Shown here: one piece after another, positions 1 through 51,796 of the stretch
Layout: each line of letters starts with the position of its first letter
How positions within the stretch are numbered: the first letter of the stretch is position 1
Virus record (IMG/VR): IMGVR_UViG_3300048918_000059
DNA length: 51,796 nucleotides
Source of the DNA: a virus
Direction: 5' to 3' (one strand)
Notes under the pieces: generated by a model
The model's input: the letters and a program-made list of their open reading frames with translations, nothing else
Database searches by the model: none
Told to the model about the DNA's origin: nothing
Program-made: the position numbers and the translations under genes

Positions 1-127
1 GAAAGCATTAAAAGACGATCTAATTTCGCACGGCTTAATTGGTACTTAGATTAATACGTTGGGTTTGGTATAGCCAATATCAACAAGGATAGCGTTAGCT
101 TTAGCAATATACCAATCTAGATCAATA
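1..127. repeat. Terminal direct repeat, left copy (identical to 51670-51796)
   Basis: Positions 1-127 are base-for-base identical to the last 127 nt of the window, so the unique sequence is 51669 bp. This fits a circularly closed contig (assembler k-mer-length overlap) or a short terminal redundancy. Confidence 0.95.
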
Positions 128-2007
128 TCAGAAGGCAATTGGGGCGGTAGCTGCATTAGTGGCACCGCCCCTTCTGTGTCGGGAACAGCATGACCCGACT
201 TGCACTTTAGGATTGGACCGGGGGTTGCTTGCGTGGAGTAGTACCAACGGACAAGTTTCCCGAGGTAATAACCATCTTTGTAGGCACCGCCTGTTGCGTT
301 TTTGATTGAGACGAAATCTTGAATGCGCTTGGCGTTGCGTATAGTAGTTTCAATTGGTGTTCCTTTCGTTAACAGCGCTTGAACGGCCATAGAGCAAACA
401 TAAACTTCCGGGTTAGTGCTGAGAGGGCTATTTAGCGCCGAACCCTTATCACTGTAGGCACCTTTGACTTTAACTTTGCCGTCCGTCTTTACTGCAAAGT
501 AAGCGTTAACATCCCTCGAATATATGGCGCTGTAGCGCGTTTCCTCGGTGCGCAGGCCAGTCTCGCGGCCCCATATGCCTACAGTTTTGTTTAACGCATC
601 ATACCGAGACTTAGGGCACACAACGACAATGCCGTCCGTATTAGCCGATACAACCTCTAAGCCCATATCGGTAAAGCGCTCAATCAGCATGACTAGGCTT
701 AGCTGCCCGGTTAGGGTAATTTGCACCATGTTAGCCGGATCATAGACAATGCTATAAGGGTCCGATGTTTTACCGAAAATACCGTTATTAGCGATCTTCA
801 AACCGCCAGCTTCGGCTTCAAGCAAATCGGCTTCCTTGATCTTCCCTGCATCGCGTAGGATAGGAAAGTTATCTTTAGCTGATGTACGGCGATCAACCAT
901 GCCGCCAAGGGCAACAAAGAAATGCTCGCCAAGGTGCGCAGGGCCAAACTTGTTATTAAGAATAAGGTTCGGATAATAGCCGGTAACGTCAATGTCTAAA
1001 ATATAGTTGTCAGAGCCAGCAACTACAGCTTGCTTTTTCTCGTTAGAGTGCAGCCCGCCAATGCCTACAGAATACTTGCGCCCCGCTATGGTTAGCTTCT
1101 TCTCGCGGATGTCTGGCGGACAATCGACGTGCCCTGTCTCCCCTACAGCGAGCGGAGTAGCCGCGAAGTCGCGCAGGGCGGCTGTCAGAGCCTCATTCTC
1201 GAACGCGATGTACGCAGGCGGGCTGTAATGGAAAACAAGCCCTGCGGCGCTCTCTGGACCCGGCTTCTTAGGCACGAAGCCAGCGGCCCGCCTGAGTTCC
1301 GCGACCATGACGGCTTCCGCCATCTGCGCATCTGATTTGGAGCGTAAATCAATGTTGCCGTAGAGCCGTCCGAAGTCCTCACGCAAAGCAATATGCGGCG
1401 CTAACTCGCGATAGATCAATTCGAGATTGTCAAGATCGTTAAAGCAATAATCTCTAATCTGTAGGCATTCCGCTTCGGTCAAGGTCGCGTGTGGATCAAT
1501 CGGCAACTCTTGAATGCGTTCCGCATGAAGCCGTGCGCCGTAAAGTTTCTGACTGCCTTTCAGCGGGCATACTTCCATAATGTCGATATGGTTAAACGGG
1601 CAGTCGAGCCAAGGCCGCTTAGCGTCGTTTAGGATTATTTCGTCGGATAGCGCCTTGACCGCATCGGCATCGGCACCCTTCAAAATGATACGCAATATCG
1701 GCATATCGTAACCAATGCCGTTGAACGTCACTAGCCGGAAGTGCGACAAAGCCCAACGCAGCGCGTCTAGGTTAAATGGCCGCTCCATAAAGAAGTATTG
1801 GCCGGAGTTAAGATGCTTAAACGCAATCAGATTGTAATTACGATAGTTCTCGGTATCTAGCGCTACTTCATCGCCAAAAGGCAAAGCCATGGGATCGCTG
1901 CACATTAGCCGCTCTGGCGCATCATACTCCAAGCGTTTAAGGGACGATGGATCAATGCCCACCGCCCCTTTTGGCTTTTTGGTCAATTCTTCGTCGGTGA
2001 AGAACAT
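46..2007 (-). CDS. DNA polymerase with N-terminal 3'-5' proofreading exonuclease (family-B-like motifs)
   Basis: 653-aa ORF. DnaQ-like exonuclease motifs ALDTENY, TFNGIGYDMPIL and YCFNDLDNL. Polymerase motifs LDIDVTGYYPNLIL (cf. DxxSLYPS), KIANNGIFGK (cf. KxxxNSxYG) and SANTDGIVV (cf. DTDS). The stop codon lies inside the terminal repeat and overlaps the tailspike stop. Confidence 0.8.
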   Translation of the reverse strand: MFFTDEELTKKPKGAVGIDPSSLKRLEYDAPERLMCSDPMALPFGDEVALDTENYRNYNLIAFKHLNSGQYFFMERPFNLDALRWALSHFRLVTFNGIGYDMPILRIILKGADADAVKALSDEIILNDAKRPWLDCPFNHIDIMEVCPLKGSQKLYGARLHAERIQELPIDPHATLTEAECLQIRDYCFNDLDNLELIYRELAPHIALREDFGRLYGNIDLRSKSDAQMAEAVMVAELRRAAGFVPKKPGPESAAGLVFHYSPPAYIAFENEALTAALRDFAATPLAVGETGHVDCPPDIREKKLTIAGRKYSVGIGGLHSNEKKQAVVAGSDNYILDIDVTGYYPNLILNNKFGPAHLGEHFFVALGGMVDRRTSAKDNFPILRDAGKIKEADLLEAEAGGLKIANNGIFGKTSDPYSIVYDPANMVQITLTGQLSLVMLIERFTDMGLEVVSANTDGIVVVCPKSRYDALNKTVGIWGRETGLRTEETRYSAIYSRDVNAYFAVKTDGKVKVKGAYSDKGSALNSPLSTNPEVYVCSMAVQALLTKGTPIETTIRNAKRIQDFVSIKNATGGAYKDGYYLGKLVRWYYSTQATPGPILKCKSGHAVPDTEGAVPLMQLPPQLPSDIDLDWYIAKANAILVDIGYTKPNVLI

Positions 2008-2198
2008 TATGCTTTAAGTTCTCGATAAGCTACAATTGTTCGTCCGGGTATTGTAGGAGCGTAAGCATTGCCTACATTCCAGTTGCCTTCGAAATATTCA
2101 TCGATATTAATAACTTCATCGTTGGCTAATTTGGCTTGTCCAAATTTGATAGGCTGTTCGCCGCCGTCCCATTTAATCCATTTGCCATAAATTGCCAT
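2007..2198 (-). CDS. hypothetical protein (63 aa)
   Basis: The track ORF 2007..2210 starts at the ATG inside a GATGGAGGA box. The ATG at 2198 sits 5 nt downstream of the GGAGGA and is the likelier start. The stop overlaps the polymerase start (TAATG). Confidence 0.6.
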   Translation of the reverse strand: MAIYGKWIKWDGGEQPIKFGQAKLANDEVINIDEYFEGNWNVGNAYAPTIPGRTIVAYRELKA

Positions 2199-2213
2199 AA
2201 TTTCCTCCATCCA

Positions 2214-3170
2214 TCAAGCCATCAAGGCAACAACCCCTCTGACATTCCCCTTATAGAAGTAGAATTTGCCATTGTCAATAGCAAAATGCTCTACGTAAGG
2301 CTTGACCGCTTTAAGATAGTCCGCATTGATACGAATTTCAGGATGGCTAACGCTCCATTCCACAGCGTAGCTAGCCGTAGGCGTTTCCATGCGCATATCG
2401 CTAAGCCTAATTGCGTCGCTGTTGCCACGAAACGGCATGACGTTATCTAAGCCTTCCCAAATGTCGGACATAGGGAACCATTCGCCATTCCAAGCGCAAA
2501 CGCTAGAATAAGGCAAGGGCTCCGCATCCATCGTACTTGTTCGTAGCCACGAATTATCCTCAAAAAATACCGTAAAGCTATTGTCCGAACAGCCAAAGCC
2601 TTTAATAGCTTTGCCTACAGATAGAACGCGAGTAACGAATTTCTTAGGCAACATCAATGTCGGCAGGTTAAGCCCGTGATATGCTTGCATGATGACGTTG
2701 CGGTTAGTAGTGCTAACGAGCCCTTCGCTAACGCAAATGCTTGCGCTTTGGATATGCTCTGCATCTTCGTCCGCAATGTGCGCGACTTGCGCGATTGCCT
2801 CGAATAGCGCCGGGGCAAGCTCGCTGTAATAGCCGTCCGGGGTACTCGCGGGCAGGCCTGCAACTGTAGGCAGGGTGACGCGCAAAGGGCCGCTATTGAC
2901 GCTTACGACGCCGCGAAGCTCGGACATGGCATAGCCGTCCTTGCACCGCTCTAGTGCCGCTATAAGCTGGTGGCACGGCGGGTTCGCAGAAATGGCGGCT
3001 TCGGTCAGGATGCCTGCCGACAGCGGCTTGTTGAAAGCTGTGATTGCACCGTTGGCTATAACGCAGCATGTTTCGTTAGGCTCACCTTTCTTTGCTAGGA
3101 TTGAGCTAATGAAGCGCAATTGTTCTAGCAGGGGGTTGGGTTCTACCGGGGGCTTTTTCTTAGCGGCCAT
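2214..3170 (-). CDS. hypothetical protein, possible sliding-clamp (DnaN-like) replication accessory factor
   Basis: 318-aa ORF between the helicase and polymerase genes. It shows loose resemblance to beta-clamp sequence logic (LVSTTNRNVIMQA..., LMLPKKFV). No decisive motif, so the function is tentative. Confidence 0.4.
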   Translation of the reverse strand: MAAKKKPPVEPNPLLEQLRFISSILAKKGEPNETCCVIANGAITAFNKPLSAGILTEAAISANPPCHQLIAALERCKDGYAMSELRGVVSVNSGPLRVTLPTVAGLPASTPDGYYSELAPALFEAIAQVAHIADEDAEHIQSASICVSEGLVSTTNRNVIMQAYHGLNLPTLMLPKKFVTRVLSVGKAIKGFGCSDNSFTVFFEDNSWLRTSTMDAEPLPYSSVCAWNGEWFPMSDIWEGLDNVMPFRGNSDAIRLSDMRMETPTASYAVEWSVSHPEIRINADYLKAVKPYVEHFAIDNGKFYFYKGNVRGVVALMA

Positions 3171-3334
3171 TACGATTTATCCGAAAGCCAAACAGTCCGT
3201 GCATATTCCCATCCGGCACGCCAAGCAATGCCTTTAAGAGTGCTTAACTTGTAAGGTGGCGTAAATTGCTGTTTTACAAAATCGCAATATCCCTCACAGA
3301 AATATGCGTTATGCATTCGTCTATCACCAGCCAT
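3170..3334 (-). CDS. hypothetical protein (54 aa)
   Basis: Internal ATG at 3334 of track ORF 3170..3403, preceded by GGAGG about 9 nt upstream. It overlaps the helicase 3' end by 11 nt, and its stop overlaps the next start. Confidence 0.5.
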   Translation of the reverse strand: MAGDRRMHNAYFCEGYCDFVKQQFTPPYKLSTLKGIAWRAGWEYARTVWLSDKS

Positions 3335-5021
3335 AACCTGTAACCTCCGGATACTTCCTATTAACCACAACATCAATTGTCTTAGGTTTAGCCAATTGTG
3401 CATTCAAACGCAAGGCTTCGTCAATGTTAGTCGGCGGTTCTGTCGCACTGCGCTGCCGCCACCAATCCCTTGCAATCTTACCAGCATAGCCGCCATGCTC
3501 AAAGCCCTTAAGCTCTGTGAATGACCGCAATCCGCATTGATACGTCGCTTTAAGCATCGCCTTGTTGCCCTTTACCTCTTGACGAGTGTAAAAGACGTTA
3601 TCGACAGGAAATGTCTCGACTTGCGGCGCATCGCTTTCGGGTATCTGAGTACCGCGAATGATTTCGTCCGTGCCTGCTTGGTCGTACACTTTTGGGATTA
3701 GCTTGAACTGCGCCCCGCATTCATCGCAGTAGCGTGCCGAAGCATGGTTATAGCCACCGCAGCCTATAGCAACGCCAAACTCAGGCTGTACCAGCTTTTC
3801 AGTCTCACAAATCTTGATCGGCGCAACGCCGCCCTTGTCGCCTTTACGCTTCGGAATAACCGGGTCGTTGATCGGGCCTAGACGCGGCACATTGCCTACA
3901 AAGTCAAGCCCTCTGCAATTGATTTTCACATGACCGCAAAGACGCGCATAACGCTCTTGCTGCTTTGGAGATAGCTTGAACCAGTCGAAAGGCCGCGTTC
4001 CACGTCCCCACTTTTGTACATGCTTGCCAGTCGAAGTTGTTAGCTGAATATCGGCAATCAAATCTAGAAACGGGTTGTTGATGCCTACAGTTAGCACGTT
4101 TTGGTTTACTGCAAACGCGACTTCGTTAGCAAGCCATGCTAGAATATTAGCCGTGCGTTGCTTAGGCGACATTTTGGAATGCACGCCAACTGTAGGCAAA
4201 CCCATCGCGTTCAAAATCGCAACAGCTTCGTCAACATGCTTGACCGAGCTAACAAACACCAAGCCAGAACGGCGCTTTTCATGTAGGAACCATGCAACTG
4301 TTTCACGCAAAGCAGGCTCTAGAATGTGCTGCGCATCAACCGCGCGCTCAACTTCCGACTGCACGAAATCGCCGTTGCTAATATGAATTCCGGTGCTATC
4401 TAGCTTAATATCAGTAGGGCGGGCTACTACAGGTGCAAGATAGCCTTCTTCAATCAAGCGATTAAAGTTCTCGCGCGAAGTGCAATCGTAAATCACATCA
4501 TCAAATAGGCCACTATCGGTAATCATACCTTGGCCTAGACGATAGGGCGTGGCCGAATAGCCTATTACTTTCATATTCGGATTTATCGAACGCAGCTTTT
4601 CAATTGTAAATTGATAGCGCGTATCATCATTAGGCGAAACTAGATGCGCTTCATCAATAAAGCAAAGATCGCGCCAACCAAACATTTCGACGCAATTAGC
4701 TACCGATTGAATAGAGCCGTAAATAATGTCGTGCGCGGTATCTTTACGCTTAAGCCCAGCCGAGAATACGCCTACAGGTGCATTAGGCCAAATATCGCGC
4801 ATAGTTTGCGCATTGCCATCGACTAGCTCTTGCACGTGCGTTAAGTTAATAAACCGCTGGCCTGCAAACATTGACATAAAACGGCGCTGCGTTTCAGCCA
4901 TGGTGAAGCTCTTGCCGGTGCCCGTTGGCAAGGCAATGACGCAATTACCCTTGTTGCCTTGTGAGTAATACTCCAAAGGCGCGGCAATCGCTTCTTCCTG
5001 AAACCACCGCTTTTCGTACAT
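3324..5021 (-). CDS. SF2 DEAH-box DNA helicase with internal zinc ribbon
   Basis: 565 aa. Walker A ALPTGTGKS, DEAH box FIDEAHLV, and a Cys motif CGGYNHASARYCDECG. Confidence 0.85.
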   Translation of the reverse strand: MYEKRWFQEEAIAAPLEYYSQGNKGNCVIALPTGTGKSFTMAETQRRFMSMFAGQRFINLTHVQELVDGNAQTMRDIWPNAPVGVFSAGLKRKDTAHDIIYGSIQSVANCVEMFGWRDLCFIDEAHLVSPNDDTRYQFTIEKLRSINPNMKVIGYSATPYRLGQGMITDSGLFDDVIYDCTSRENFNRLIEEGYLAPVVARPTDIKLDSTGIHISNGDFVQSEVERAVDAQHILEPALRETVAWFLHEKRRSGLVFVSSVKHVDEAVAILNAMGLPTVGVHSKMSPKQRTANILAWLANEVAFAVNQNVLTVGINNPFLDLIADIQLTTSTGKHVQKWGRGTRPFDWFKLSPKQQERYARLCGHVKINCRGLDFVGNVPRLGPINDPVIPKRKGDKGGVAPIKICETEKLVQPEFGVAIGCGGYNHASARYCDECGAQFKLIPKVYDQAGTDEIIRGTQIPESDAPQVETFPVDNVFYTRQEVKGNKAMLKATYQCGLRSFTELKGFEHGGYAGKIARDWWRQRSATEPPTNIDEALRLNAQLAKPKTIDVVVNRKYPEVTGYGW

Positions 5022-5846: not shown

Positions 5847-6701
5847 CTAAATCACACTTTCCCATTGATCGCACGCTTTAGGCCAAAACTCTTTTGGTAT
5901 GACTGCACCATGCAAGTTACAATGCCATTCGCCATTTGCAACAGGAACACTATTGCGGCACGATCTGCAATTAACCTCAGGCTTCGCGCCATGATGGCAG
6001 ACATCATTGGCGAAGCAGCCTTTGCACAGCCAGAAAGTAGGGTTTGCCGATACGCGCTTAGGCGGCTCTTTCGTATAGATAATATCCTTTGCGCGCGCCT
6101 CTTTGCGCTCGCATTCCTCAAACGATAATTCTTCAATCTCTACATGGATTGTGTCGTCGTTCTTATTGATTGAGAGGTACAGAACGTGCTTAATTGAAAG
6201 CTTCGCACCGTAAATACTATTCTGGCTGAAATGCTCGGGGTGAACCTTCTTAACGCCTTCCGCGCAAAGCTTGTTAAAGCCTGAGCCCGTGCCTTTGGTT
6301 TTGTACTCAAGCAGGATAGGCCCGTCGCCATAGATTTCGGCAAACCATGAAGGCCCTTTAGCGATGCCATCAACAGAGCCGCCGAAATGCCCGTCAACTC
6401 CACTTACACGAAACTGCTTGCCGTTTTCGTCAACGTCCCAAACCGTAAAGCCGATGCCGCGCAGCCATTCCGTAAAGCGTTCTTCCTCGCGATGACCGCG
6501 ATTAAATAGGCGGTACATGCGGCCTGAAAAGTTAGCAGGCGCTAGCCACCGGAACGTTGCCCACAGTTGGAAGTCACACTCTTTGCCGATAATGCTTGCC
6601 CCCAAATGCGAGCGGTGCCCATCATTGTAGGCACGTTGGCAGTAGTTATCAATCTCGGTAGAGACGCGGCTTGCAAGCTGGCGACGGGTTTCAGCGTCCA
6701 T
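5847..6701 (-). CDS. PD-(D/E)XK (RecB/Cas4-like) exonuclease with C-terminal Cys cluster
   Basis: 284 aa from the ATG at 6701 (TAATG overlap with the upstream stop). VDGI...LLEYKTKG gives the D...ExK motif. C-terminal cysteines CKGCFANDVCHH...CRSCRN...HCNLHG. Confidence 0.7.
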   Translation of the reverse strand: MDAETRRQLASRVSTEIDNYCQRAYNDGHRSHLGASIIGKECDFQLWATFRWLAPANFSGRMYRLFNRGHREEERFTEWLRGIGFTVWDVDENGKQFRVSGVDGHFGGSVDGIAKGPSWFAEIYGDGPILLEYKTKGTGSGFNKLCAEGVKKVHPEHFSQNSIYGAKLSIKHVLYLSINKNDDTIHVEIEELSFEECERKEARAKDIIYTKEPPKRVSANPTFWLCKGCFANDVCHHGAKPEVNCRSCRNSVPVANGEWHCNLHGAVIPKEFWPKACDQWESVI

Positions 6702-6886
6702 TAGAAACAAAACCAAGCAGCGCACTTAGTGCATTTTACACCCCCGCCGCCATAGAAATTTGAATAGATAATACCATCGCAACCGGGGGTAGCTCCGTAA
6801 AGCTGGTCCAAAGGATGATTGCTGGCCTGCACGTCTTTACAAACATTGCTACTAGAAGGTTTTGCAAAAGTTTTAGTCTGTTCCAT
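6701..6886 (-). CDS. hypothetical Cys-containing small protein (61 aa)
   Basis: Track ORF. A GATGGAGG box lies 4 nt upstream of the ATG. Confidence 0.6.
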   Translation of the reverse strand: MEQTKTFAKPSSSNVCKDVQASNHPLDQLYGATPGCDGIIYSNFYGGGGVKCTKCAAWFCF

Positions 6887-7119: not shown

Positions 7120-7383
7120 TTACTTGCAAAAGCGCCGCTCAAGTTCATCGATAAGCGGGTTCAGCCAGCTTTCGCGATAAATGCGGGTCTGCTCCCTGCA
7201 AAAATCTTCAACACTTGGCATATTCTTATTAACTTGTTCATGCCAGCCTACATTGTAGGCAACTTCAATTTCGTTGTAACCGACGCTGAAACTTTCCATA
7301 TTTGCATACTTGCGAATTTCACGCAGAAGCTTTGCCTTGCTCCATTTCGTGTGATCGCTCGACATATCGTTATAGTGCGCCAT
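7120..7383 (-). CDS. hypothetical protein (87 aa)
   Basis: Track ORF. A CGATGGAGGA box lies 7 nt upstream of the ATG, with a promoter-like element just upstream. Confidence 0.7.
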   Translation of the reverse strand: MAHYNDMSSDHTKWSKAKLLREIRKYANMESFSVGYNEIEVAYNVGWHEQVNKNMPSVEDFCREQTRIYRESWLNPLIDELERRFCK

Positions 7384-7784: not shown

Positions 7785-7821
7785 TCTGTAGGCACCTAGG
7801 GCACGATAAGATGCCTACAGA
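7785..7821. repeat. 10-bp inverted repeat built from two copies of the abundant 8-mer
   Basis: TCTGTAGGCA (7785-7794) and TGCCTACAGA (7812-7821) with a 17-nt loop. The right arm contains the stop codon of the HNH-AP2 gene. Confidence 0.9.
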
Positions 7822-8345
7822 TTATGGGGTACAACTTTTTCTCTGCCGTGATTTAAATTATAACCGTATTTAAATTCAGCATTGCGCCTAGCATTATAAG
7901 CTTCATCGAAGGTCGCGTGAGTTCCTAAACCTTTAGCTTTACCTCCGATACTAATAAATGCATAAAACATTCCACTAGGTCTAATTCTAATGCCCGTGTA
8001 TCCGCTTGTATTATTTTTAGGCGTAGACCTATTTCTATTACTTCTAACAATATCTACATTTGTAAGATTTTTCCAACGATTATTCTGCGGATTGCCATCT
8101 TTATGGTCAACAATTTCAGGGTCTTCGCCTGTCATCCATTTCCAAATAACACGATGTTTTCGAACATCTTTCTTTAGCAATTTGCCTTCAAAATAACCTT
8201 TTTCTGTAATTTTTGTAAAAGCTTCTTTGCCAATCATTGAAGGCCAAAAGCCTTTCATATTAGACCGCTCCCGCCACGTTAGAGAACCTGTTTCCGGGTC
8301 ATAGTCTAGAAGTTCGCGTAAGATATTCTGTGGCGGTAGTGGCAT
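7815..8345 (-). CDS. free-standing HNH homing endonuclease with AP2-type DNA-binding domain
   Basis: 176 aa. HNH_3-type motif VDHKDGNPQNNRWKNL. AP2-like segment SGYTGIRIRPSGMFYAFISIGGKAKGLGTHATFDEAYNARRNAE. It is clearly more AT-rich than the adjacent genes. Confidence 0.85.
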   Translation of the reverse strand: MPLPPQNILRELLDYDPETGSLTWRERSNMKGFWPSMIGKEAFTKITEKGYFEGKLLKKDVRKHRVIWKWMTGEDPEIVDHKDGNPQNNRWKNLTNVDIVRSNRNRSTPKNNTSGYTGIRIRPSGMFYAFISIGGKAKGLGTHATFDEAYNARRNAEFKYGYNLNHGREKVVPHNL

Positions 8346-8356: not shown

Positions 8357-9034
8357 TTAAGAATTCCAAGGGGCGGCACCGCCTGCATTAGCGGGAGCCG
8401 CAGTGCCCCCGCCCGCACCCCACGGAGCCCCGCCAGCAGGCGCAGCACCGGCACCCGGAGGCGGGCTTGCCCATTCCGCCTTAGGCTGTTCAGAAGGGCT
8501 CGGGGCCGGAGTAGCGGCAGGGGCCGCATTGGCAGGCGGCGGGCTCGCAGTCGGGGTTGCCGCACCATTGCCGTTTCCCGTTCCATGCTTCGTGCCGTTA
8601 TTGCTGTCCCAATCCTTGACTTTGCTCTTACGGGTCTTAACCACTTCGGTCTTACCGTTCGGCGTATATTCTTCTTCCACAACCTCAGTCTTGACCCAAA
8701 ACGGCTTATTGCGAAGGTTCGACGCATGATTGTCAACAGGCTTAAACTCGCCAGTTGCATGGCAGTATGCACTAAACTGGCGCTGCCCGATTTCCTGCGC
8801 CTGTGGCTTTTCGTGGAAGACGTTGATAAAGTCGTCAATCGTCTTGCCGGTGTTCGGGCCGCTAACAGCCTTGAGATACAGCGTAAGACCAAAGCCGTTC
8901 TTGTTGCCGTTCTCTGCGCCCTTGCTGTCCGCAATTACACACTGCGTCCAGCCCGGTTCCCAAACTTCACGCCCAGCCGCTGCGGGCTGTACATCCTGCC
9001 AGTTTACACCGGCGAATACGTTATTCATATCCAT
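8357..9034 (-). CDS. putative ssDNA-binding protein (DUF669-like) with Pro/Ala/Gly-rich C-terminal tail
   Basis: 225 aa, located directly downstream of the Sak4-like ATPase as in known Sak4/SSB pairs. The globular N-terminal ~150 aa is followed by a low-complexity PAG tail ending APWNS. Assignment rests on context and general resemblance only. Confidence 0.5.
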   Translation of the reverse strand: MDMNNVFAGVNWQDVQPAAAGREVWEPGWTQCVIADSKGAENGNKNGFGLTLYLKAVSGPNTGKTIDDFINVFHEKPQAQEIGQRQFSAYCHATGEFKPVDNHASNLRNKPFWVKTEVVEEEYTPNGKTEVVKTRKSKVKDWDSNNGTKHGTGNGNGAATPTASPPPANAAPAATPAPSPSEQPKAEWASPPPGAGAAPAGGAPWGAGGGTAAPANAGGAAPWNS

Positions 9035-10120: not shown

Positions 10121-10323
10121 AGCGAAACGCCTTCTACTTCCAGCACCTTAATTGTAGGCACTGTGGTTAGCCATTCGGTTCCGAACTTTTCGCAAATGCG
10201 AATATAGCCGGAGCCATGCTTAAGATAATGCTTATCAGCGCGCTTATAGAGTTCACACTGACGATTAGTAGCGCCGAAGCGGCACCATGCTAGCGCGTCA
10301 TCGATCTTTGTAATGTGTTCCAT
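10117..10323 (-). CDS. hypothetical protein (68 aa)
   Basis: Track ORF, translationally coupled to both neighbours. Confidence 0.65.
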   Translation of the reverse strand: MEHITKIDDALAWCRFGATNRQCELYKRADKHYLKHGSGYIRICEKFGTEWLTTVPTIKVLEVEGVSL

Positions 10324-12658: not shown

Positions 12659-12852
12659 GCAAGTTCCTCCATTCCGCGCCATAAAACATAATCATCAGGA
12701 AATGCTTTAAAGAACCTATCGCCCGGATTATGCTCGTTAGCTGCTTTTGCTAGATATTCTGCCCAAATGTCTTTTACATTTTCGGCAATAAGAATATCAG
12801 CAATGCTTTCTCTATTGAAATTATCAACAGCTACTATCTTCATTTCAATCAA
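12655..12852 (-). CDS. hypothetical protein (65 aa)
   Basis: Track ORF, AT-rich, immediately downstream of the GC-rich cassette. Confidence 0.6.
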   Translation of the reverse strand: MIEMKIVAVDNFNRESIADILIAENVKDIWAEYLAKAANEHNPGDRFFKAFPDDYVLWRGMEELA

Positions 12853-14273: not shown

Positions 14274-14298
14274 CGCTTCATCCTCCATCTGTAGGCAC

Positions 14299-40927: not shown

Positions 40928-40929
40928 GC

Positions 40930-43900: not shown

Positions 43901-43998
43901 CAAAGTTTGGCGAAACGATGCAAAGGCATATGAGCCAGCCGAACTCAAAGGCCAGCCAAGCTGTAGGCAGCAACTTCAAAGTAAGGCGCAATCGTTAA
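40930..43998 (+). CDS. tape measure protein
   Basis: 1022 aa, long helical/coiled-coil sequence with a central hydrophobic Gly/Ala-rich segment, located after the G/GT genes. Confidence 0.9.
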   Translation: MDERIDIEVVDKVAKSIKPELLGISAAAKNAYTQIAKLKRELGVTGGSGMGATMKAVASAERDATRASRERASQASATARALDKEAAAAAKLAAKYQQQARAASSQSAYNKSAGIGRSTKSAADSYKAFDDHGLIDKTSASLDNMGKKAELGRHHLLNLGFQLQDLFVSLQAGQNPLTVFIQQGGQIGQIAAQSGVGIGGMAKAIGGVLAKAVFSATAGLVALGAGAVAVGYAFISGSQDSARLSNSLSISTNKANLTTQSLYKLSDSIADSTNKSVSSVREIASAYAIDGRYSLKAVTDLTIATQKFADLTGKSASDVVSEWSKMAEGPTDFAYKLAESYDLLTLKQIEQIRKLEEQGQASQATEVLVSSLKSKLEQQTVNLGYLEQAWRGVTNAISDAWTALKNWGAEANTARPWTQVVNDLERERAKLKGTTVGDQDYVGRRLKQLDGEIGKAKQWAAIEEKRRKTSAETAKVQREGIAASAAVTAQTARFADDSERAARAVKEYKDNIEKIKRAGGTVPTDKQQAQTIAGIEKQYTPYTNSHKPKKLKESEAEKLAKRQQKALREINADLAREADILAQGNVGIDATIAERMNSIADSLDNVKISLKDANGNWTEYGKKVLVAVTANEEAKRSLATFASIYDAAVKPAGDWAIAQEQAAKAIEKWGAEADKADLINKWLAEQKEDYLNATNPMLAYNKSMRDQSTLLKYYGKELEIQTEIQRRYNDMVAANPALKDTLDKNSLRGEVAKDRNANDNQSFLSDLEQSGLQNSGQNVGGNNWLLDNYKNLYAQIDAMRKGDVESERNAQAAKRELDRRYLDARLEGTRTTLDALSSLQDSKTKEFAAIGKAAAVAQATIDGILAVQKALATLPPPVNFVAAAAIGVATAANVAKITGIGFQKGGYTGDMPAHAAVGAVHGREYVMDANATARIGVPALDALRSGRLNPGPANDNRGAKVTVINNANAEIVVRERSDGELEIMVDRRLEAKFGETMQRHMSQPNSKASQAVGSNFKVRRNR

Positions 43999-44959: not shown

Positions 44960-45267
44960 TGGAACAATGGTTAACTAAATATCGCCATAAAGGCTACGAT
45001 TGCTCAGACTTCGCAGCGGAAGTTCTAAACGTGCCTACAGAAGCGATTTCAGGGGCCTTGGCGACTCGAAAGGGCTGGCAACCTATTCGCGTGCCGGTTG
45101 AGCGTTCCTTGGTCATCCTGCGCCGCAATTCGGCGCCTCCCCATGTAGGCATATATACTTCAAACGGCGTCTTACACCTTGGCGAACGCTCTGCTATGTG
45201 GCAACCTATGCACGTAATCAGGCGCGACTATAACAATTTGAGATTTTATGCTCAGCGTAATAATTAA
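44959..45267 (+). CDS. tail tip assembly protein with NlpC/P60-type Cys-His motif (lambda K-like)
   Basis: 102 aa. GYDCSDFAAEV (Cys) and PPHVGIYTSNGVLH (His). Confidence 0.55.
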   Translation: MEQWLTKYRHKGYDCSDFAAEVLNVPTEAISGALATRKGWQPIRVPVERSLVILRRNSAPPHVGIYTSNGVLHLGERSAMWQPMHVIRRDYNNLRFYAQRNN

Positions 45268-46291
45268 TCGAAACGATCCGTTTTCGCTTGACGATTACGT
45301 ATTGTATGAAACTGATGATTTATGCGGGTTGCTCCAAAAAGAGTTTCCGGTATGGCCGGAACATGCGCGTATTTATCACAATCAAGTTGCAGAAGATTGC
45401 GATGTTACACCGACTGACACGCGAAGCATTGCCCGCTTGGAGCAATTAGAAGGCACGGTTTACGTTGTAGTTTATCCCGGCGACCCCGGAACCTTGGCAA
45501 TTATTGCTATTGCTGTTGCTGTTTTAAGCGCAGCGGCATTTTTGTTTCTTAGTCCTAAACTACCTGAAATGGGCTCAAGTCCATCTTCTAATAATTCGCT
45601 TAGTGAACGCTCTAATAAAGCTAGGCCTAATTCGCGCATTCCTGATATTTTCGGACAAGTCCGAAGCATACCGGACCTTATTGCAGTTCCTTACCGTATC
45701 TTTGAAAATAATGTGGAAGTTGAGATTGCTTACATGTGTGTGGGGCGGGGCTCATATCTTTTAGAGGACATTCGAGACGGCGATACCTACTTAAGTTCTA
45801 TTTCAGGTGCGGGCGCTACCTTTTATGGTCCTAACACTTCTCCAAACTATGGAACCCCGCAACTTCAAATCGGCTCTAGCATTACGGAGGATTTATACTC
45901 TGCTACCAAGCTAAATGAAGTCAACGGCCAAACACTAAAGCCGCCTAATGCAAATGCTGTCAAAGGTGCCGGAAATATTCGTTTCAACACGCCTAATCTT
46001 ATCGAAAGCATAGGTATAGACTTTACTAAAACTTTTGAAGATGGGCAGACGCTAATTGTAGGCAACGCTAATTACGGTGGAGGATATTCCTACAATACGG
46101 CGTTAGAAGATGCTCGTTTTTATCCAGACAAGACTATTGAATTTGATACGTTCGATCCTTCCAGCATTTTTACCGTAGGGCAGTCTTTGACTATCTCTAA
46201 CGCTGTGTTTACAGATGGCACGATTGTTGTTGATCTTTCTGGCACTTACATCATAGCTACTATTAACAGTACAACTATAGAGTTGATATAA
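45248..46291 (+). CDS. tail tip protein: lambda I-like N-terminal region fused to the start of a J-like host-specificity protein
   Basis: TVYVVVYPGDPGTLAIIAIAVAVLSAAAFLF is an I-like hydrophobic segment. It is followed by RPNSRIPDIFGQVRSIPDLI, which is typical of J-family N-termini. Confidence 0.5.
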   Translation: MLSVIINRNDPFSLDDYVLYETDDLCGLLQKEFPVWPEHARIYHNQVAEDCDVTPTDTRSIARLEQLEGTVYVVVYPGDPGTLAIIAIAVAVLSAAAFLFLSPKLPEMGSSPSSNNSLSERSNKARPNSRIPDIFGQVRSIPDLIAVPYRIFENNVEVEIAYMCVGRGSYLLEDIRDGDTYLSSISGAGATFYGPNTSPNYGTPQLQIGSSITEDLYSATKLNEVNGQTLKPPNANAVKGAGNIRFNTPNLIESIGIDFTKTFEDGQTLIVGNANYGGGYSYNTALEDARFYPDKTIEFDTFDPSSIFTVGQSLTISNAVFTDGTIVVDLSGTYIIATINSTTIELI

Positions 46292-48147
46292 TGGCAATAC
46301 CTGTTGAGCCAGACGAACCGTTAGAGCCCGACGCGCCGCCTTCGCAAAGTGGCGATTGGGCGGCTATTGCTGGTTTTTCAGGAGGGGTAACACCTTACAA
46401 GCCGGTTAACTTTGCGGGGTTAGTTGATGACGGTGTAATAGATTTAGCTGGCAGCTATACTATTGTGTCTGTTACTACAAATCAAATAGTGCTTTCTAAT
46501 CCAAACATTGTTAACCCGGATTGGGATGATCTTACCGAAGCAACAGACTATTCAAGCCCATCTCTAAATACTACGGGAGAAGTTTGGGTTGGCTGGTTTG
46601 ACATTGACGCTTTGAACATGGACAAGGTTGCGTTTAACGTCATTGCTCCGCAAGGCATGTATGGTATTAACAAAGCTGGTGAGCAAATTGCGCGCGCTGA
46701 GACTGCCTATATTGAAATGGTGCCTATCGCTAAGGACGGAACTGTTTTAGGGGCAGTAGAGACGTTTACTCAGACGTTGACCGGAAGCGCAGTTGAAAAA
46801 GAGCAAGTTGCTATGACGATCATGGCAACGCCCGCAACTGGCTACCGCTATAAGGCGCGTATGAAACGCTCAACGCCTACTGATCTTAATCCGAAGCATC
46901 AAGCTGTTGACGAAATGAAGTGGGAAAGTTGCTACGGTCTTTCTACGGTAACGCAAGACCATTTTGGCAATGTAACAACCGTGTTTACGCGCACTTATGC
47001 AACGCAGTCTGCTACTGCTGTGAAGGAACGCCGCTTCAACCTTCAAGCAACACGGCTTATTTCAGAGTGGAACGGAACCACCTTTGTAGGCATGGAGCCG
47101 CAAACCAGCGCGGCACCGATCATTTGTGCCATGGCGTTAGATGCCTACATAGGTAATCGTTCTATAGAAGAATTGAACGTAGCGCAAATCTATGCTGAAA
47201 TTGAGGCTTTAACGGACTATTTTGGTATAGATGAAGCAACGCAATTCAACTATACCTTTGACGATGATAATATTTCGTTTGAAGAAAGTGTGCAGACTGT
47301 AGCGCAATCTGTTTTCTCTACTGCTTACAGGTTGGGCAACGTGTTGCACCTTTACGGCGAAATGGCAACTGAGACTTCGCTCCTGTTGTTTAATCATCGT
47401 AATAAATTGCCTAAATCTGAAACGCGCACAGTTACGTTTGGCCCAACTAATGATTATGACGGCGTAGAACTAACTTACGTCGATCCTAAAGACGATGTTG
47501 TCCAAACGATATATCTGCCAGATGACCAATCGGCGCGCAATCCAAAGAAGATTGAAACTGTAGGCATTCGTAACGAACCGCAGGCAATGCTACATGCTCA
47601 CCGTGCCTACAATAAAATTATATATCAAAATACAACTACGCAATTTGATTGCTTGGAAGAAGCTGAATATTTAATAAATAACAACCGTATTTTGGTAGCT
47701 GACAATACTCGTTCTGATACTAAGGACGGCCATGTAAAAGGGCAAATCGGCCTTGTTTTACAATTAAGCCAATCCTTTGTAGGTATACCGGGAACCGTTT
47801 ACACGATATTCTTACAACATACAGACGGCACAGTGGAAGCTATAGAATGCGAGCCGGGGGCTGACCAATGGCAGGTTGTGTTAAGCGAAGCTCCGGCCCG
47901 TCCACTGTCTCTTGGCGACGAACAATCGGTGGTTGCACAATATTGGATTGTGGGCGATAATGAGCCGAGAGCGTCGGCTTTTCTTATGTCTGAGAAAGAA
48001 CCGTCTAGTAAGAATACTTATTCCATCACAGCAATCAATTACGATGCTCGATATTATCAAGACGACCGGAATTTTGCGATAATAACGGCAGATGCTACAT
48101 TTAGAACGGCAGACAATGTTAACGTTACAGCGGACGGATCGCAATAA
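46291..48147 (+). CDS. central tail fibre / host-specificity protein (J-like, continuation)
   Basis: 618 aa, TAATG-coupled to the previous gene. Size and position fit the tail tip. Confidence 0.55.
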   Translation: MAIPVEPDEPLEPDAPPSQSGDWAAIAGFSGGVTPYKPVNFAGLVDDGVIDLAGSYTIVSVTTNQIVLSNPNIVNPDWDDLTEATDYSSPSLNTTGEVWVGWFDIDALNMDKVAFNVIAPQGMYGINKAGEQIARAETAYIEMVPIAKDGTVLGAVETFTQTLTGSAVEKEQVAMTIMATPATGYRYKARMKRSTPTDLNPKHQAVDEMKWESCYGLSTVTQDHFGNVTTVFTRTYATQSATAVKERRFNLQATRLISEWNGTTFVGMEPQTSAAPIICAMALDAYIGNRSIEELNVAQIYAEIEALTDYFGIDEATQFNYTFDDDNISFEESVQTVAQSVFSTAYRLGNVLHLYGEMATETSLLLFNHRNKLPKSETRTVTFGPTNDYDGVELTYVDPKDDVVQTIYLPDDQSARNPKKIETVGIRNEPQAMLHAHRAYNKIIYQNTTTQFDCLEEAEYLINNNRILVADNTRSDTKDGHVKGQIGLVLQLSQSFVGIPGTVYTIFLQHTDGTVEAIECEPGADQWQVVLSEAPARPLSLGDEQSVVAQYWIVGDNEPRASAFLMSEKEPSSKNTYSITAINYDARYYQDDRNFAIITADATFRTADNVNVTADGSQ

Positions 48148-49388
48148 TGGCTAAGCAAGTAATTAATGTTGGTTCCGCTCCTGATGACGGCACTGGCGAT
48201 CTTTTGCGCGATGCGTTTATTAAATCTAATGATAACTTTGATGATTTATATACGCAAGTTGCGTCTAAACAACCTTCTGACGCCGACTTAACCGCAATTG
48301 CCGCCTTATCTACAACTTCATTCGGTCGTGCATTATTAGAATTGATTGATGAAAATGCTTTGCGTACAACGGCTGGTTTGGGTACATTAGCTACGCAAAA
48401 TGGAACCTTCTCGGGGACTTCTAGTGGAACTAATACGGGAGACCAAACTGCAATTACCGGTAATGCAGGAAGTGCGACTGTATTACAAACTGCTAGAACT
48501 ATAAACGGTGTTTCATTTAACGGTTCTGCTAATATTACAATAAACGCAGTTGATGCTACCGCGAGAGTTCCGGATACACGTACCATAAATACTACCGCCC
48601 CGCTTACAGGCGGGGGCGATCTATCAGCTAATCGCACGCTCGCTATTAGCGCCGCAACAACCGGCGCAGCGGGCAGCATGTCGTCGGCAGACAAGACCAA
48701 GCTGGACGCCATTACGGGAACTAATACCGGCGATCAGACGAGCGTTACCGGCAATGCCGGGACGGCCACGGCTCTACAAACTGCGCGCAATTTTTCAATA
48801 AGCGGCGGCGGGATTAGTGCTAGTACGGTTAGTTTCAATGGCAGTGCGGCGGTTATCCTCAACGCCTCGGTGGATGCGGGACATATTACGCTCGCCCGCA
48901 TGGCGAACCTTGCGGCAAATAGTTTCATCGGGAACAATACCGGGTCTGCGGCCACGCCGATTGCGCTGACGGTTGCACAGGCGAAAACGCTTCTTGCCAT
49001 TGGTACAGCGGACGTAAGCGGCTTGGGCACTATTTCTACGCAAGCGGCAAGTTCGGTTGCCATTACTGGCGGCTCGATGCTGAATATCTCGGCGTTTAGC
49101 TGGCGTAGTGCGTCGGGCACCGCCGACAACCGCCTTTGGGACTTGGACTTTGGCGCAGGCAACACCTTTACCTTGCGCGCCGTGAATGATGCGATTAGCG
49201 CGGCAAGCGGGGTGTTCTCGGTCAGCCGTAGCGGTGCGACCGTCACGGAGTTCCGCGTCCCTACGGCATTCCGATGCAACACCCTGCGCGTCGATGTGAC
49301 GCCTACAGCTAAGACCATTACATGCACGCATGTTGCGGTGTTTAGCGTTAACGGCACTGACTACGAATTTCCGTGCAAGACCGCTTAG
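48147..49388 (+). CDS. tail fibre protein with two phage-tail-fibre repeats
   Basis: GTNTGDQTAITGNAGSATVLQTARTINGVSFNGSANITINA and GTNTGDQTSVTGNAGTATALQTARNFSISGG...FNGSAAVILNA, plus SMSSADKTKLD. These match the Phage_fiber_2-type repeat. Confidence 0.8.
   Translation: MAKQVINVGSAPDDGTGDLLRDAFIKSNDNFDDLYTQVASKQPSDADLTAIAALSTTSFGRALLELIDENALRTTAGLGTLATQNGTFSGTSSGTNTGDQTAITGNAGSATVLQTARTINGVSFNGSANITINAVDATARVPDTRTINTTAPLTGGGDLSANRTLAISAATTGAAGSMSSADKTKLDAITGTNTGDQTSVTGNAGTATALQTARNFSISGGGISASTVSFNGSAAVILNASVDAGHITLARMANLAANSFIGNNTGSAATPIALTVAQAKTLLAIGTADVSGLGTISTQAASSVAITGGSMLNISAFSWRSASGTADNRLWDLDFGAGNTFTLRAVNDAISAASGVFSVSRSGATVTEFRVPTAFRCNTLRVDVTPTAKTITCTHVAVFSVNGTDYEFPCKTA
48426..48548 (+). 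repeat. tail-fibre repeat unit 1 (AT-rich codon usage)
   Basis: aa 94-134 of the fibre. Same peptide motif as unit 2 but encoded with A/T-ending codons. Confidence 0.8.
48717..48866 (+). repeat. tail-fibre repeat unit 2 (GC-rich codon usage)
   Basis: aa 191-240 of the fibre. Same motif as unit 1 but encoded with G/C-ending codons. Confidence 0.8.
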
Positions 49389-49418
49389 CCGCCCCATGCT
49401 TTATAGGATTTTGCGACA

Positions 49419-50057
49419 ATGACTGTTGTTACTAAAACGCAATTAGAAAATGCCTCACTAGATTGCGAAAGCCTAGGCATTGTAATTAATGGCGATGAAG
49501 ATGCGATAGCTGTAACCAGAACAGGGCGGCAAATCAAAAGTTTGTCGAATATAGTTTATAATCAACAAGTTCAAGAAACAAATGCTTGGGAGGCGGCTAC
49601 CGTTGCGCAAAGTGCTGTTGAAGTGGCACTAGGCGCTAATCATTATTATATCAGCGTAATCGCCGCTGAGGCTGATAGTGATTTAGAAGAAGGCGATATT
49701 TACGTAACGGGCGGCGCTCAAGACACGCTTATTTATTACAGGCGCACCTCCGTAGGTTCAGTTAAAGTTGCTGAAACAGTTACAGCGGCCACTGTAGGCA
49801 ATATTGTTAAGCAGTATAAGGGTAAAGTTTGGACTTCTAGCACCCAACCTGATGTAAATTTTAGTAATATCGGCGACGTTTGGTTTGCTCCCGATGGTGT
49901 TATTTACGAACGAAATAGCGCGCAAGGCATTACTATAGGCGGACGCGTGCTTTTAGTAAAAAATGCAGCGCCGATCATTCCTTGGGATCACGCCGATAGT
50001 CAGCCCATTAAACGTCTTTACGATGCGTTAGCTTTAGAAGGAATACCAGTAGCATGA
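49419..50057 (+). CDS. hypothetical tail-associated protein (212 aa)
   Basis: Track ORF between the fibre and tailspike genes, with an ATGA overlap to the next gene. Confidence 0.6.
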   Translation: MTVVTKTQLENASLDCESLGIVINGDEDAIAVTRTGRQIKSLSNIVYNQQVQETNAWEAATVAQSAVEVALGANHYYISVIAAEADSDLEEGDIYVTGGAQDTLIYYRRTSVGSVKVAETVTAATVGNIVKQYKGKVWTSSTQPDVNFSNIGDVWFAPDGVIYERNSAQGITIGGRVLLVKNAAPIIPWDHADSQPIKRLYDALALEGIPVA

Positions 50058-51718
50058 ATTATTATGATAGCACACCGTATATTTATACGTCTAGCGGAGG
50101 CGATGACGCTGTTGCGATCAAGGCGCTAATTGAAGCTGGTGAGCGTTGGATACAATGCGCAAGCTCCAGTTTAATATTTGACACGCCTTGTATTTTAACA
50201 GATGGTGGCGTTCCGGCCCACGGTTTTCGTTTCGAGCCTGTCGATGGCTTAGCGACAATTCTAATAAACGTTGACGGCATTGGCCGCGATCCAGTTACGC
50301 CAAGCAATCCTAGTTATGCAGGCTTTGAATACAATGGCGGTTTTGCTACGGCGGGCTATCTAGCTTCGCCTTCTAGCGTTGGCGATTTGCAGATTACCGT
50401 GAATAACGGCGCGCTATATACTGTGGGTCAATGGGTCTTTATATCCGATGCTTCCACAAATCCGGGCACAACCTTACAGCCGTTAGATGGGCCTATGGAA
50501 ACTAGGCAAATTTTAGTAATTGCAGGAAACATACTTACTGTAAACGAAGCTTTGGATAGGGCGCATATCGCCAACACTATTGTTGCAAAATGCGTACCCA
50601 TTAAAAATGTTTATTTTAAAAGTCTGACATTCACAGGCGATGCCGGTAACGGTGTGCATGTTCATGCTTCGCATGATGGCTATTTTAAAAACATAACAAC
50701 TAATTCCGATTGGAGCGGCGGAACCATGTTGTTAATAGATAACGCAGGCATAGGCAATCTAATTGAGGATTGCTACTGCAATGGTTCTGTACCGGGACTA
50801 AGTGCAGGGCAACAAGTGTGGGGAGTTGCTATTGAAGGTCAAAAACGCACCCGTGTTGTAAATTCAGGAGGAGAGTATTGCGGCGCTGGCTTTACTGCAA
50901 ATTATTGCATAGACTGCAATATTTTTAATCCGCCTGCCCATAGAAACAATGTCAATGTAGGAATTTATTCAAAAAGTATTAGAACTAGCATCATAACTCC
51001 TTATGTAGCAAACGCTAATAATTCTGATACAGTTATATCAGGGGATTGCACAGATTGCGTAATTGTAGATGCGCAGGCTTATATTGATCCAGAGGAAAGC
51101 GAAACTACTAAGGAATGGAGAAGCTACCCGGTAGCAACTAGTGTTGGTGCAACTGACTCGTTTCTTGTAGTTACGGAAAACAATGCAGGTTTTCAAGTCA
51201 GTAAGTCAGTTGTTGTTTGTAGAGAAGCGGACGGTAGTATAAGCGGTAATGGGCCGTGGTATAACACCGGCGTAAATTACGGGCCGATGTTTGTAGGCCA
51301 GAATACTAACCAAATCTGGGGTTGGGGAATGAGCGGCGCCCCTAATTCTAGAAATTGGGTTCTAGTTAATGCTACATTGGGTGACAGCCAAGCTATTACC
51401 GTGGATTATTCTAATAATAATATAGCGTTTGTAGGCAGCATTAATATTCCTACAGCCAAGACTTATAATATCAATAGCTTACAAGTTGTTGCGGCGCGTA
51501 AAACTGGTTGGGCTGCTGATACGGGTACGTCTAAGCGTACCGCTAATGCAACTTACGCTACTGGTTCGGCGCTGTCTGTTAGCGCCAGTTATACGCCAGC
51601 CGAAGTTACCGCTATTATCACACGCTTGGCCTTGGTAGAAGCCGCTTTACAAAATAGTACGCAATCTCAGAAAGCATTAAAAGACGATCTAATTTCGCAC
51701 GGCTTAATTGGTACTTAG
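50054..51718 (+). CDS. tailspike / tail fibre, probable beta-helix (depolymerase-like) with conserved C-terminal fibre motif
   Basis: 554 aa. The repetitive Asn/Gly/Cys-containing central region suggests a right-handed beta-helix. The C-terminus ARKTGWAADTGTSKRTANATY...ALKDDLISHGLIGT resembles a widespread phage fibre terminus. The stop lies inside the terminal repeat. Confidence 0.55.
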   Translation: MNYYDSTPYIYTSSGGDDAVAIKALIEAGERWIQCASSSLIFDTPCILTDGGVPAHGFRFEPVDGLATILINVDGIGRDPVTPSNPSYAGFEYNGGFATAGYLASPSSVGDLQITVNNGALYTVGQWVFISDASTNPGTTLQPLDGPMETRQILVIAGNILTVNEALDRAHIANTIVAKCVPIKNVYFKSLTFTGDAGNGVHVHASHDGYFKNITTNSDWSGGTMLLIDNAGIGNLIEDCYCNGSVPGLSAGQQVWGVAIEGQKRTRVVNSGGEYCGAGFTANYCIDCNIFNPPAHRNNVNVGIYSKSIRTSIITPYVANANNSDTVISGDCTDCVIVDAQAYIDPEESETTKEWRSYPVATSVGATDSFLVVTENNAGFQVSKSVVVCREADGSISGNGPWYNTGVNYGPMFVGQNTNQIWGWGMSGAPNSRNWVLVNATLGDSQAITVDYSNNNIAFVGSINIPTAKTYNINSLQVVAARKTGWAADTGTSKRTANATYATGSALSVSASYTPAEVTAIITRLALVEAALQNSTQSQKALKDDLISHGLIGT

Positions 51719-51796
51719 ATTAATACGTTGGGTTTGGTATAGCCAATATCAACAAGGATAGCGTTAGCTTTAGCAATATACCAATCTAGATCAATA
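51670..51796. repeat. Terminal direct repeat, right copy (identical to 1-127)
   Basis: See the left copy. Confidence 0.95.

Follow-up and report, generated by a model that had tools for sequence, protein, structure and literature searches.

The viral genome IMGVR_UViG_3300048918_000059 from IMG/VR (51,796 nucleotides; this whole stretch is called the window below) is saturated with one asymmetric 8-mer, TGTAGGCA, which reads TGCCTACA on the plus strand where it lies on the minus strand. An exact search of both strands over the whole window finds 64 copies, 36 on the plus strand and 28 on the minus strand. We propose, with a probability of roughly 0.6, that this word is where the phage's own archaeo-eukaryotic primase (AEP)-type primase-helicase, encoded at 14584-16992 on the plus strand, recognizes its template, and that the word serves lagging-strand priming along the entire genome; that the primase reads the word, where the primer starts and the lagging-strand role are the parts of this proposal that we infer. 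Primase recognition sites, including an 8-nt site for an AEP enzyme, are already known, whereas saturation of a whole genome with such sites, and clade-wide dialects of the site, are apparently undescribed. No published description of these words, of repeats in phages BcepGomr and 9g, or of primase-site enrichment in phage genomes was found in the literature searched.

The number of copies is far above expectation under all of the null models used. One hundred dinucleotide shuffles gave on average 1.49 copies (maximum 4), and an order-3 Markov model predicts 3.08 (z ~35), with TGTAGGCA the top-enriched 8-mer of the window. For a codon-aware null, synonymous codons were shuffled inside each of 90 mechanical open reading frame (ORF) calls, which cover 95% of the sequence; 200 such shuffles yielded a mean of 9.0 copies (sd 2.2, maximum 15), and this null is a generous one, as it retains both the amino-acid sequences and the word-shaped codon pool. 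Density is 1.24 per kb in the window vs. 0.034 per kb in 3.0 Mb of other fetched loci. An earlier note on this DNA had claimed over-representation from a count of 63, and the claim holds on recounting and against the other fetched loci: all 36 of its plus-strand coordinates are exact, while on the minus strand one copy (3893-3900) had been overlooked and two coordinates were one base off (9468 for 9467, and 31957 for 31958). The core is sharply 8 bp long, with 72 and 71 copies of the 7-mers, 64 of the 8-mer and only 26 of the best 9-mer. Its 24 one-mismatch variants are mildly enriched, with 60 copies in total vs. ~36 expected and 0-7 copies each.

Plus-strand copies lie at 279-286, 453-460, 1460-1467, 2865-2872, 4191-4198, 6626-6633, 7254-7261, 7787-7794, 9792-9799, 10153-10160, 12052-12059, 14290-14297, 15795-15802, 17384-17391 (the right edge of an AT-rich gap), 21737-21744, 23513-23520, 24995-25002, 26336-26343, 27063-27070, 27944-27951, 32680-32687, 33199-33206, 36668-36675, 37094-37101, 37631-37638, 39025-39032, 39271-39278, 40263-40270, 40923-40930 (whose last A also begins the tape-measure ATG), 43962-43969, 45144-45151, 46057-46064, 47085-47092, 47559-47566, 49793-49800 and 51430-51437. 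Those on the minus strand are at 576-583, 1062-1069, 2069-2076, 2612-2619, 3893-3900, 4082-4089, 7812-7819, 9467-9474, 11897-11904, 14612-14619 (at the start of the primase gene), 16704-16711, 20379-20386, 22117-22124, 24161-24168, 26618-26625, 29967-29974, 30697-30704 (at the TerL stop), 31445-31452, 31958-31965, 33399-33406, 33569-33576, 36088-36095, 37012-37019, 40292-40299, 41928-41935, 45032-45039, 47142-47149 and 47604-47611. The two ends of the window (1-127 and 51670-51796) form an exact 127-bp direct repeat, so that the assembly is circular, or circularly permuted, and its unique part is 51,669 bases long; no copy of the word falls inside the duplicated end. The second most enriched word of the window, (TA)GATGGAGGAA, is an ordinary one, a strong Shine-Dalgarno sequence 5-8 nt ahead of start codons (at 2211, 5562, 7398, 11359, 13968 and 14289 on the minus strand, and at 17830 and 22220 on the plus strand); a ninth copy, at 15513, is within the primase gene.

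Placement of the copies with respect to genes indicates what kind of constraint is acting. All but five of the 64 copies are within ORFs, the remaining 5 being at junctions or in intergenic DNA, and the 59 ORF copies are divided almost evenly between sense (30) and antisense (29), occupying four reading frames. Sense copies encode x-Val-Gly-[IKMNRST], and antisense copies encode [LMV]-Pro-Thr (12), x-Ala-Tyr-[IKMNRST] (13) or Cys-Leu-[HQ] (4). Synonymous choice would allow the word in 105 amino-acid contexts, and it is written in 59 of them (56%). Given this balance between sense and antisense, and the share of synonymous capacity that is used, the constraint acts on the DNA, is strong and is indifferent to transcription, which bears out the earlier view that neither protein sequence nor transcript polarity is responsible.

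Mean spacing is 1.46 and 1.74 kb on the two strands. The gaps show no significant regularity (coefficient of variation, CV, 0.86, not significantly under random), and the largest word-free gap, 2995 bp, is ordinary for this number of copies (P = 0.82). There is no switch of orientation at the putative origin near 17 kb, with 13 plus and 11 minus copies to its left and 23 plus and 17 minus copies to its right. It had also been suggested that the word avoids compositionally foreign segments and so marks the phage backbone. Each of these segments taken alone has a probability of 0.26-0.62 of containing no copies, and their joint P of 0.014 refers to segments that were picked post hoc, so the idea of a backbone marker is without statistical support. 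Comparison with a relative of ~80% nucleotide identity (locus L005) indicates that word sites are under purifying selection with turnover, as four of six alignable sites are exactly kept (30697-30704, 31445-31452, 31958-31965 and 32680-32687; chance 17%), two are lost (33199-33206, where the relative has TGTAGGTA, and 33399-33406) and two are gained.

When all 64 copies are oriented as TGTAGGCA, the sequence on their 5' side has a distinct signature. From position −7 to −1, G makes up only 35 of 448 bases (7.8%, vs. 25.6% in the background; p = 6e-22), and this G-poor tract is seen in both the sense and the antisense class of copies. Position −1 is a pyrimidine in 50 of the 64 copies (78%, p = 2e-6), and the 3' side of the word is nearly free of constraint. 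Such a one-sided pattern would be expected of a purine-initiated primer of ~7 nt templated from the 5' edge of the word.

The window encodes an enzyme that could read such a site. The gene at 14584-16992 (plus strand) specifies an 802-aa AEP primase-helicase (phrog_3022, E 4e-177) whose N-terminal ~260 residues match the NrS-1 N300 structure in the PDB, with an E-value of 1e-14 for the single sequence and 3e-44 for a profile of ten clade members. The profile alignment extends as far as residue ~255 of the N300 chains (289-320 residues long) and takes in the conserved SQSEADxAL...AFY...R-F segment; the DxD (D90, D92) and SPSGxGxH (H128) motifs align with NrS-1 and are invariant in relatives. 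Judged by these alignments, the N-terminus is homologous to the NrS-1 primase-polymerase from the Prim/Pol domain into the probable helix-bundle region. The same region also matches the SaPI5 primase-helicase (7OLA, E 1e-50 with the profile), and the C-terminal half carries a P-loop; residues G404, G406 and K407 are invariant.

NrS-1 priming needs an unusually long 8-nt template site, 5'-TTTGGTTA-3'; the enzyme also primes on 5'-GTGG-3' and 5'-GTGA-3', GTG being essential, and the new strand begins at the base immediately 5' of the recognition site. In ORF904 of pRN1, GTG is likewise essential and is read by the helix-bundle domain (PMC8718748, PMC7102993). One of the words found in relatives of the window phage, TGTGGTTA (T-GTGG-TTA), agrees with TTTGGTTA at 7 of 8 positions in the same orientation, and GTGG is contained in TGTGGTTA, TGTGGTCA, TGTGGGCA and TGTGGACA. 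The earlier note could not match the window word to any described signal; the words of its clade do match these published primase recognition sites. In the NrS-1 genome itself (L176), six family words are found within ~390 bp directly after the primase gene, namely TGTGGTTA on both strands, TTTGGTTA, TGTGGTCA, TTTGGTCA and TGTAGGCA. This part of the genome of the Nitratiruptor phage (17050-17590) holds ~11 iterons (GGTTACACTT/AAGTGTAACC) alongside the six TGTRGNYA/TTTGGTYA-family words. The NrS-1 8-mer is described as having two copies, one per strand, near the genome centre at the presumed origin (PMC7102993), vs. a single exact TTTGGTTA in the genome as we searched it.

Related words are widespread among phages with the same replication module. 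We sampled 80 IMG/VR loci around homologues of the window's family-B DNA polymerase (PolB) and 80 around homologues of its primase. For dozens of these loci, the 8-mer with the strongest Markov enrichment is TGTGGGCA, TGTGGTTA, TGTGGTCA, TGTGGACA, TGTAGGCA (L086) or TGTTAGGG (L131). These sister words are scattered over both strands with densities of 0.3-1.7 per kb, the G+C content of their loci is 0.35-0.64 (TGTGGGCA alone spans 0.35-0.58), and their general form is TGTRGNYA; the phages that carry them have different hosts. Xanthomonas phage XAJ2 lacks TGTAGGCA and has 20 dispersed copies, on both strands, of TGTGGGCA, which is one mismatch from the window word and occurs there mostly as TAATGTGGGCA. 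Burkholderia phage BcepGomr has 14 copies of TGTGGTCA and 13 of TGTGGCTA, E. coli phage 9g has 30 of TGTGGTCA and 17 of TGTGGTTA in 50 kb, Variovorax phage VCLv21 has 25 of YGTGGGCA, and Acinetobacter phage Loki has 12 of AATGTGGGCA, a 10-mer also present in XAJ2. Among shorter loci, L106 (apparently Burkholderia phage KL1) has nine copies of TGTGGGCA in 18.9 kb, L042 has 37 of TGTGGTYA in 21.8 kb, and L138-L142 have 19-28 word copies each. A divergent dispersed word is that of L131 (IMGVR_UViG_3300020048_000948), where 14 copies of TGTTAGGG in 15 kb, on both strands, adjoin a full-length primase homologue. No such dispersed word was found in phages with related capsids but PolA modules (AXL3, PW916, JWX and Cruim01), or in 20 loci matching the N-terminal AEP domain only. 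As far as these genome comparisons go, the word is a clade trait that follows the phage replication module and not the host, and its earlier treatment as a peculiarity of one phage gives way to a picture in which sister words are top-enriched in dozens of phages sharing this module.

Some candidate words did not belong to this pattern. Those of L023, L027, L072, L081, L134, L158, L165 and L174 are tandem arrays or iterons and not dispersed, and the TGTAAC words of Achromobacter phage JWX (L012) are confined to its terminal repeats (1-3300 and 46350-49700). There, clustered TGTAACCA/GTGTAACGA resemble an NrS-1 iteron, AGTGTAACC; the AEP primase of JWX is a different one, and no word is dispersed over its genome. 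Microcystis phage Me-ZS1 (L178) has ~10 copies of GAGTTATGAACAG-type 10-13-mers, and its TGTGG-type signal is weak (29 CTGTGGA vs. 8.5 expected) despite the full module. A resemblance of the family words to the DnaA box (TGTGGATAA) was also considered and dropped. The DnaA box requires A at a position where the family words have T, G or C, and TGTGGATA is not enriched.

On the proposed reading, the helix-bundle domain of the primase would bind the word on the template strand of unwound single-stranded DNA, primer synthesis would start at the first base or bases 5' of the word and cross the G-poor 7-nt tract, and the primer would be passed to the phage PolB and its clamp as the replicase. An 8-nt specificity provides by chance only one site per ~65 kb of strand, and selection would therefore have written the extra copies, placing the word in both strands every ~1.5-1.7 kb, on the scale of Okazaki fragments, and taking up over half of the synonymous opportunities. 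A fork at any point of a circularly permuted genome, whichever way it travels, could then prime its lagging strand.

Several observations weigh against assigning the word to the primase. The window word has GTA and not the GTG that NrS-1 and pRN1 need, agrees with TTTGGTTA at only 4 of 8 positions, and is tied to the known sites through its sister word TGTGGGCA, one mismatch off. The 8-nt site of NrS-1 is rare, lies at the presumed origin and is not dispersed (PMC7102993). Full-length primase homologues occur in L112/L113, L117, L129, L130 and L136 with no clearly enriched dispersed word (L112/113 has four TGTAGGCA in 17 kb), and L112/L113 and L130, at least, also encode PolB, helicase and exonuclease; the primases of these word-poor loci may have a relaxed or shorter specificity. 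When 20 loci with the word were compared with 7 without it around primase homologues, no gene family separated the two sets. PolB, clamp, helicase, exonuclease and primase are co-inherited, so presence and absence cannot single out the primase, and a tree of the primase N-terminus groups by word variant, a pattern to be expected from nothing more than vertical descent. Only the window phage has the strong G-poor tract of 7 nt; in its relatives the signature is weaker, with A at −2, few G at −3 and a bias confined to −3 to −1. Moreover, the case is inferred from sequence, both for the window phage and for all members of the PolB clade.

The word could instead be a duplex binding or loading site, recognized by the C-terminal domain of a self-loading primase-helicase or by a small helix-turn-helix (HTH) protein encoded just upstream, and the copies would then be dispersed mini-origins or helicase entry points. 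The match of the primase N-terminus to the SaPI5 enzyme, itself a self-loading primase-helicase, and the clustering of family words and iterons at the presumed origin beside the NrS-1 primase gene are consistent with this, and an asymmetric 8-10-bp site would suit a monomeric DNA-binding domain. In the window, XAJ2, BcepGomr, Loki, Me-ZS1, KL1 and Kakheti25, a small HTH ORF comes before the primase. In the window this protein (14420-14608, plus strand, 62 aa, a weak HTH_31 match) is directly upstream of the primase and can be aligned with its equivalents in XAJ2 and BcepGomr, but not with that of 9g, and no HTH is recognisable in 9g or matched in the densest relatives, L138-L144. Sixty-four origins in 52 kb would be unprecedented, and iterons, which form clusters at known origins, are absent from the AT-rich gap after the window's primase gene. 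A constraint on 7 nt of one side only, with a pyrimidine at −1, fits the copying of a template better than the binding of a duplex, and the published readout of homologous sites is priming on single-stranded DNA templates (PMC8718748). We therefore consider a loading site unlikely, although among the roles listed in the earlier note the site for a phage DNA-binding or loading protein comes close to the explanation we favor; the others named there (Chi, modification and a host word) fare worse.

A Chi-like role would make the word a self-marker for the phage's SF2 helicase and Cas4 exonuclease, attenuating degradation or triggering recombination while word-free host DNA is degraded. Chi sites are asymmetric words of 5-8 nt that are over-represented in the genomes they protect, a helicase and a Cas4-type exonuclease are co-inherited with the words, and a permuted genome would need both orientations everywhere. 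What makes such a marker improbable is that neither the 292-aa Cas4 nuclease nor the helicase has an evident RecC/AddB-like recognition domain, that the words match primase recognition sites and no known Chi, that they have no orientation structure, and that NrS-1 has the same helicase, RecB and SSB genes yet keeps its words at the presumed origin. A host Chi is contradicted by words that are not host-specific and by the 36 plus and 28 minus copies, with both orientations in both arms. Very improbable, in our judgment, is a target for sequence-specific nicking (T5- or tf-type) or base modification (DpdA-type insertion of 7-deazaguanine). Although 9g, BcepGomr and Me-ZS1 encode 7-deazaguanine pathways, the words contain GG or GGC, and the window encodes an HNH endonuclease, the words occur whether or not a phage has 7-deazaguanine genes, neither the scanned window ORFs nor the XAJ2 and Loki annotations showed modification genes, and the HNH gene is not common to the clade. 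Over-representation is not expected of a modification target; the published modification motifs of CAjan are reportedly short (GA, GGC). To our knowledge, the known phage nick sites (T5, tf and phiKMV type) lie on one strand only, and the distribution of the word over both strands argues against nick sites of that kind.

The last candidate, a word inherited from the host genome (a DUS-like or otherwise skewed host word, a host Chi, or amelioration), draws on the resemblance of the ~1.2 per kb density and orientation independence to those of DNA uptake sequences (DUS) and uptake signal sequences (USS), which have a similar density and are orientation-independent in the genomes of Neisseriaceae and Pasteurellaceae. 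However, AATGTGGGCA is shared by a Xanthomonas phage and an Acinetobacter phage, words differ between two Burkholderia phages (BcepGomr and L106, apparently KL1), and PolA phages are without the word. Sister words also extend across unrelated hosts and a G+C range of 0.35-0.64. E. coli Chi is GCTGGTGG, to which the 9g words are unrelated, and TGTGGTYA occurs 3 times in 50 kb sampled from E. coli K-12, as expected at random, vs. 47 times in 9g. Host amelioration, uptake sequences and host Chi are thus excluded for practical purposes, the host comparison being that of E. coli with 9g.

Returning to the primase recognition site, a further and more tentative step, which we consider possible but somewhat doubtful, is that the words amount to an obligate priming code. 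Primers would be made only at the phage's own 8-10-nt word, Okazaki starts would be hard-wired, phage DNA would be told apart from that of host or competitor, and lineages would have co-evolving, incompatible dialects. These dialects would include TGTGGGCA, TGTGGTYA, TGTGGACA, TGTAGGCA and TGTTAGGG, with word and helix-bundle domain co-evolving, and would act as a replication-level barrier between phage lineages while constraining coding sequence across the genome. If the words are indeed primase recognition sites, lagging-strand starts are a readable 8-10-nt code that fills over half of the synonymous space open to it in a large and widespread group of phages (9g, Loki, BcepGomr, XAJ2, apparently KL1, and many uncultured relatives), phage coding sequence is subject to a new kind of genome-wide selective constraint, and sequence by itself would suffice to predict the specificity of a primase. 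Poor replication would be predicted for codon-recoded or synthetic forms of these phages, the words and their primases might supply parts for an orthogonal replication system, and the long-site observation for NrS-1 would extend from a presumed origin signal to whole-genome architecture. The reading is open to testing in a cultured system, phage 9g on E. coli K-12.

The window is a siphovirus-type genome, taken from a Logan assembly, whose capsid protein is 56% identical to that of XAJ2; a search of genome contigs with the capsid protein matched only distant Erwinia and Xenorhabdus prophages. Its replication module (PolB, clamp, SF2 helicase, Cas4 exonuclease, SSB, Sak4, MazG and primase-helicase) matches those of XAJ2 and BcepGomr. 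On the minus strand are the divergent family-B DNA polymerase (46-2007; phrog_1252, E 8e-163; 41% and 39% identity to XAJ2 and BcepGomr, respectively), a sliding-clamp-like processivity factor (2214-3170; phrog_947), an SF2 (ResIII/UvsW-like) helicase (3324-5021; Pfam ResIII and Helicase_C), the Cas4-domain exonuclease of 292 aa (5847-6725; phrog_1990, E 5e-94), a protein that binds single-stranded DNA, SSB (8357-9034; phrog_6015), and a Sak4-like single-stranded DNA annealing protein (9057-9920; phrog_124). Directly after the primase gene comes an AT-rich, gene-free gap (16993-17300) with short A/T repeats and neither iterons nor copies of the word; from its sequence, it may be an unwinding element, an origin or an early promoter region (TTGACA at 17446). 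No integrase or repressor was found among the families scanned in the window. The HNH endonuclease gene (7815-8345, minus strand; phrog_99) is inside the replication arm, has no counterpart in XAJ2 or BcepGomr, and was probably inserted as a mobile homing endonuclease. Two GC-rich cassettes (12849-13946, minus strand, and 22601-23233, plus strand), also absent from XAJ2 and BcepGomr, encode proteins with a Lar-like restriction-alleviation domain. The TerL ORF (28218-30707, plus strand) is 829 aa long, only ~490 aa of which align with relatives, and with a weak Intein_splicing match at residues 529-794 it probably contains an intein.

Among known systems, NrS-1 is the closest. Both phages have a homologous AEP Prim/Pol N-terminus, probably with a helix bundle, fused to a C-terminal ring helicase/ATPase, and both have an asymmetric 8-nt word, TGTGGTTA being one mismatch from TTTGGTTA and containing GTGG. 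The one-sided flank signature of the window agrees with the NrS-1 start of synthesis, immediately 5' of the site, and the two phages have the same neighboring genes for a helicase, a RecB/Cas4 nuclease, SSB and MazG. They differ in that NrS-1 has two reported copies near its genome centre vs. 64 dispersed over both strands of the window, and in that the NrS-1 enzyme doubles as replicative polymerase, in a temperate phage, whereas the window phage is of lytic type and encodes PolB and a clamp. The window word also has GTA in place of GTG, and the reading of the clade's words is a prediction from sequence. ORF904 of pRN1 shares the enzyme superfamily and the domain logic, and most clade words have its GTG core, but it belongs to an archaeal plasmid, and its motif of 3 nt occurs often by chance, with no need of enrichment.

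Priming of the lagging strand at defined template sequences, with flanks constrained by primer content and a primase-helicase as the reader, is also familiar from T7 gp4 (5'-GTC-3') and T4 gp61 (5'-GTT/GCT-3'). These are DnaG/TOPRIM-type primases with 3-5-nt sites, for which no saturation with an 8-mer is needed, and we know of no such genome saturation in those systems. The origin iterons of self-loading primase-helicases (SaPI Rep and P4 alpha), packed into a few hundred bp beside an AT-rich unwinding element, are unlike the window copies, which are dispersed (CV 0.86, maximum gap 2995); NrS-1, unlike the window, does show origin-type clustering beside its primase gene. Stoperators of cluster A mycobacteriophages (L5 gp71) provide another case of dozens of dispersed asymmetric sites, 13 bp long, with a phage-encoded reader. 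Their orientation follows transcription, they sit in short gaps between genes, and the phages that have them are temperate and encode a repressor, whereas 59 of the 64 window copies are inside ORFs, 30 sense and 29 antisense, with no polarity. Finally, Chi and DUS/USS are short asymmetric words that are hugely over-represented genome-wide, DUS/USS at ~1 per kb and independent of orientation; however, they are words of cellular genomes read by host machinery (RecBCD/AddAB, and the competence pilus with ComP), whereas the window word follows a phage module.

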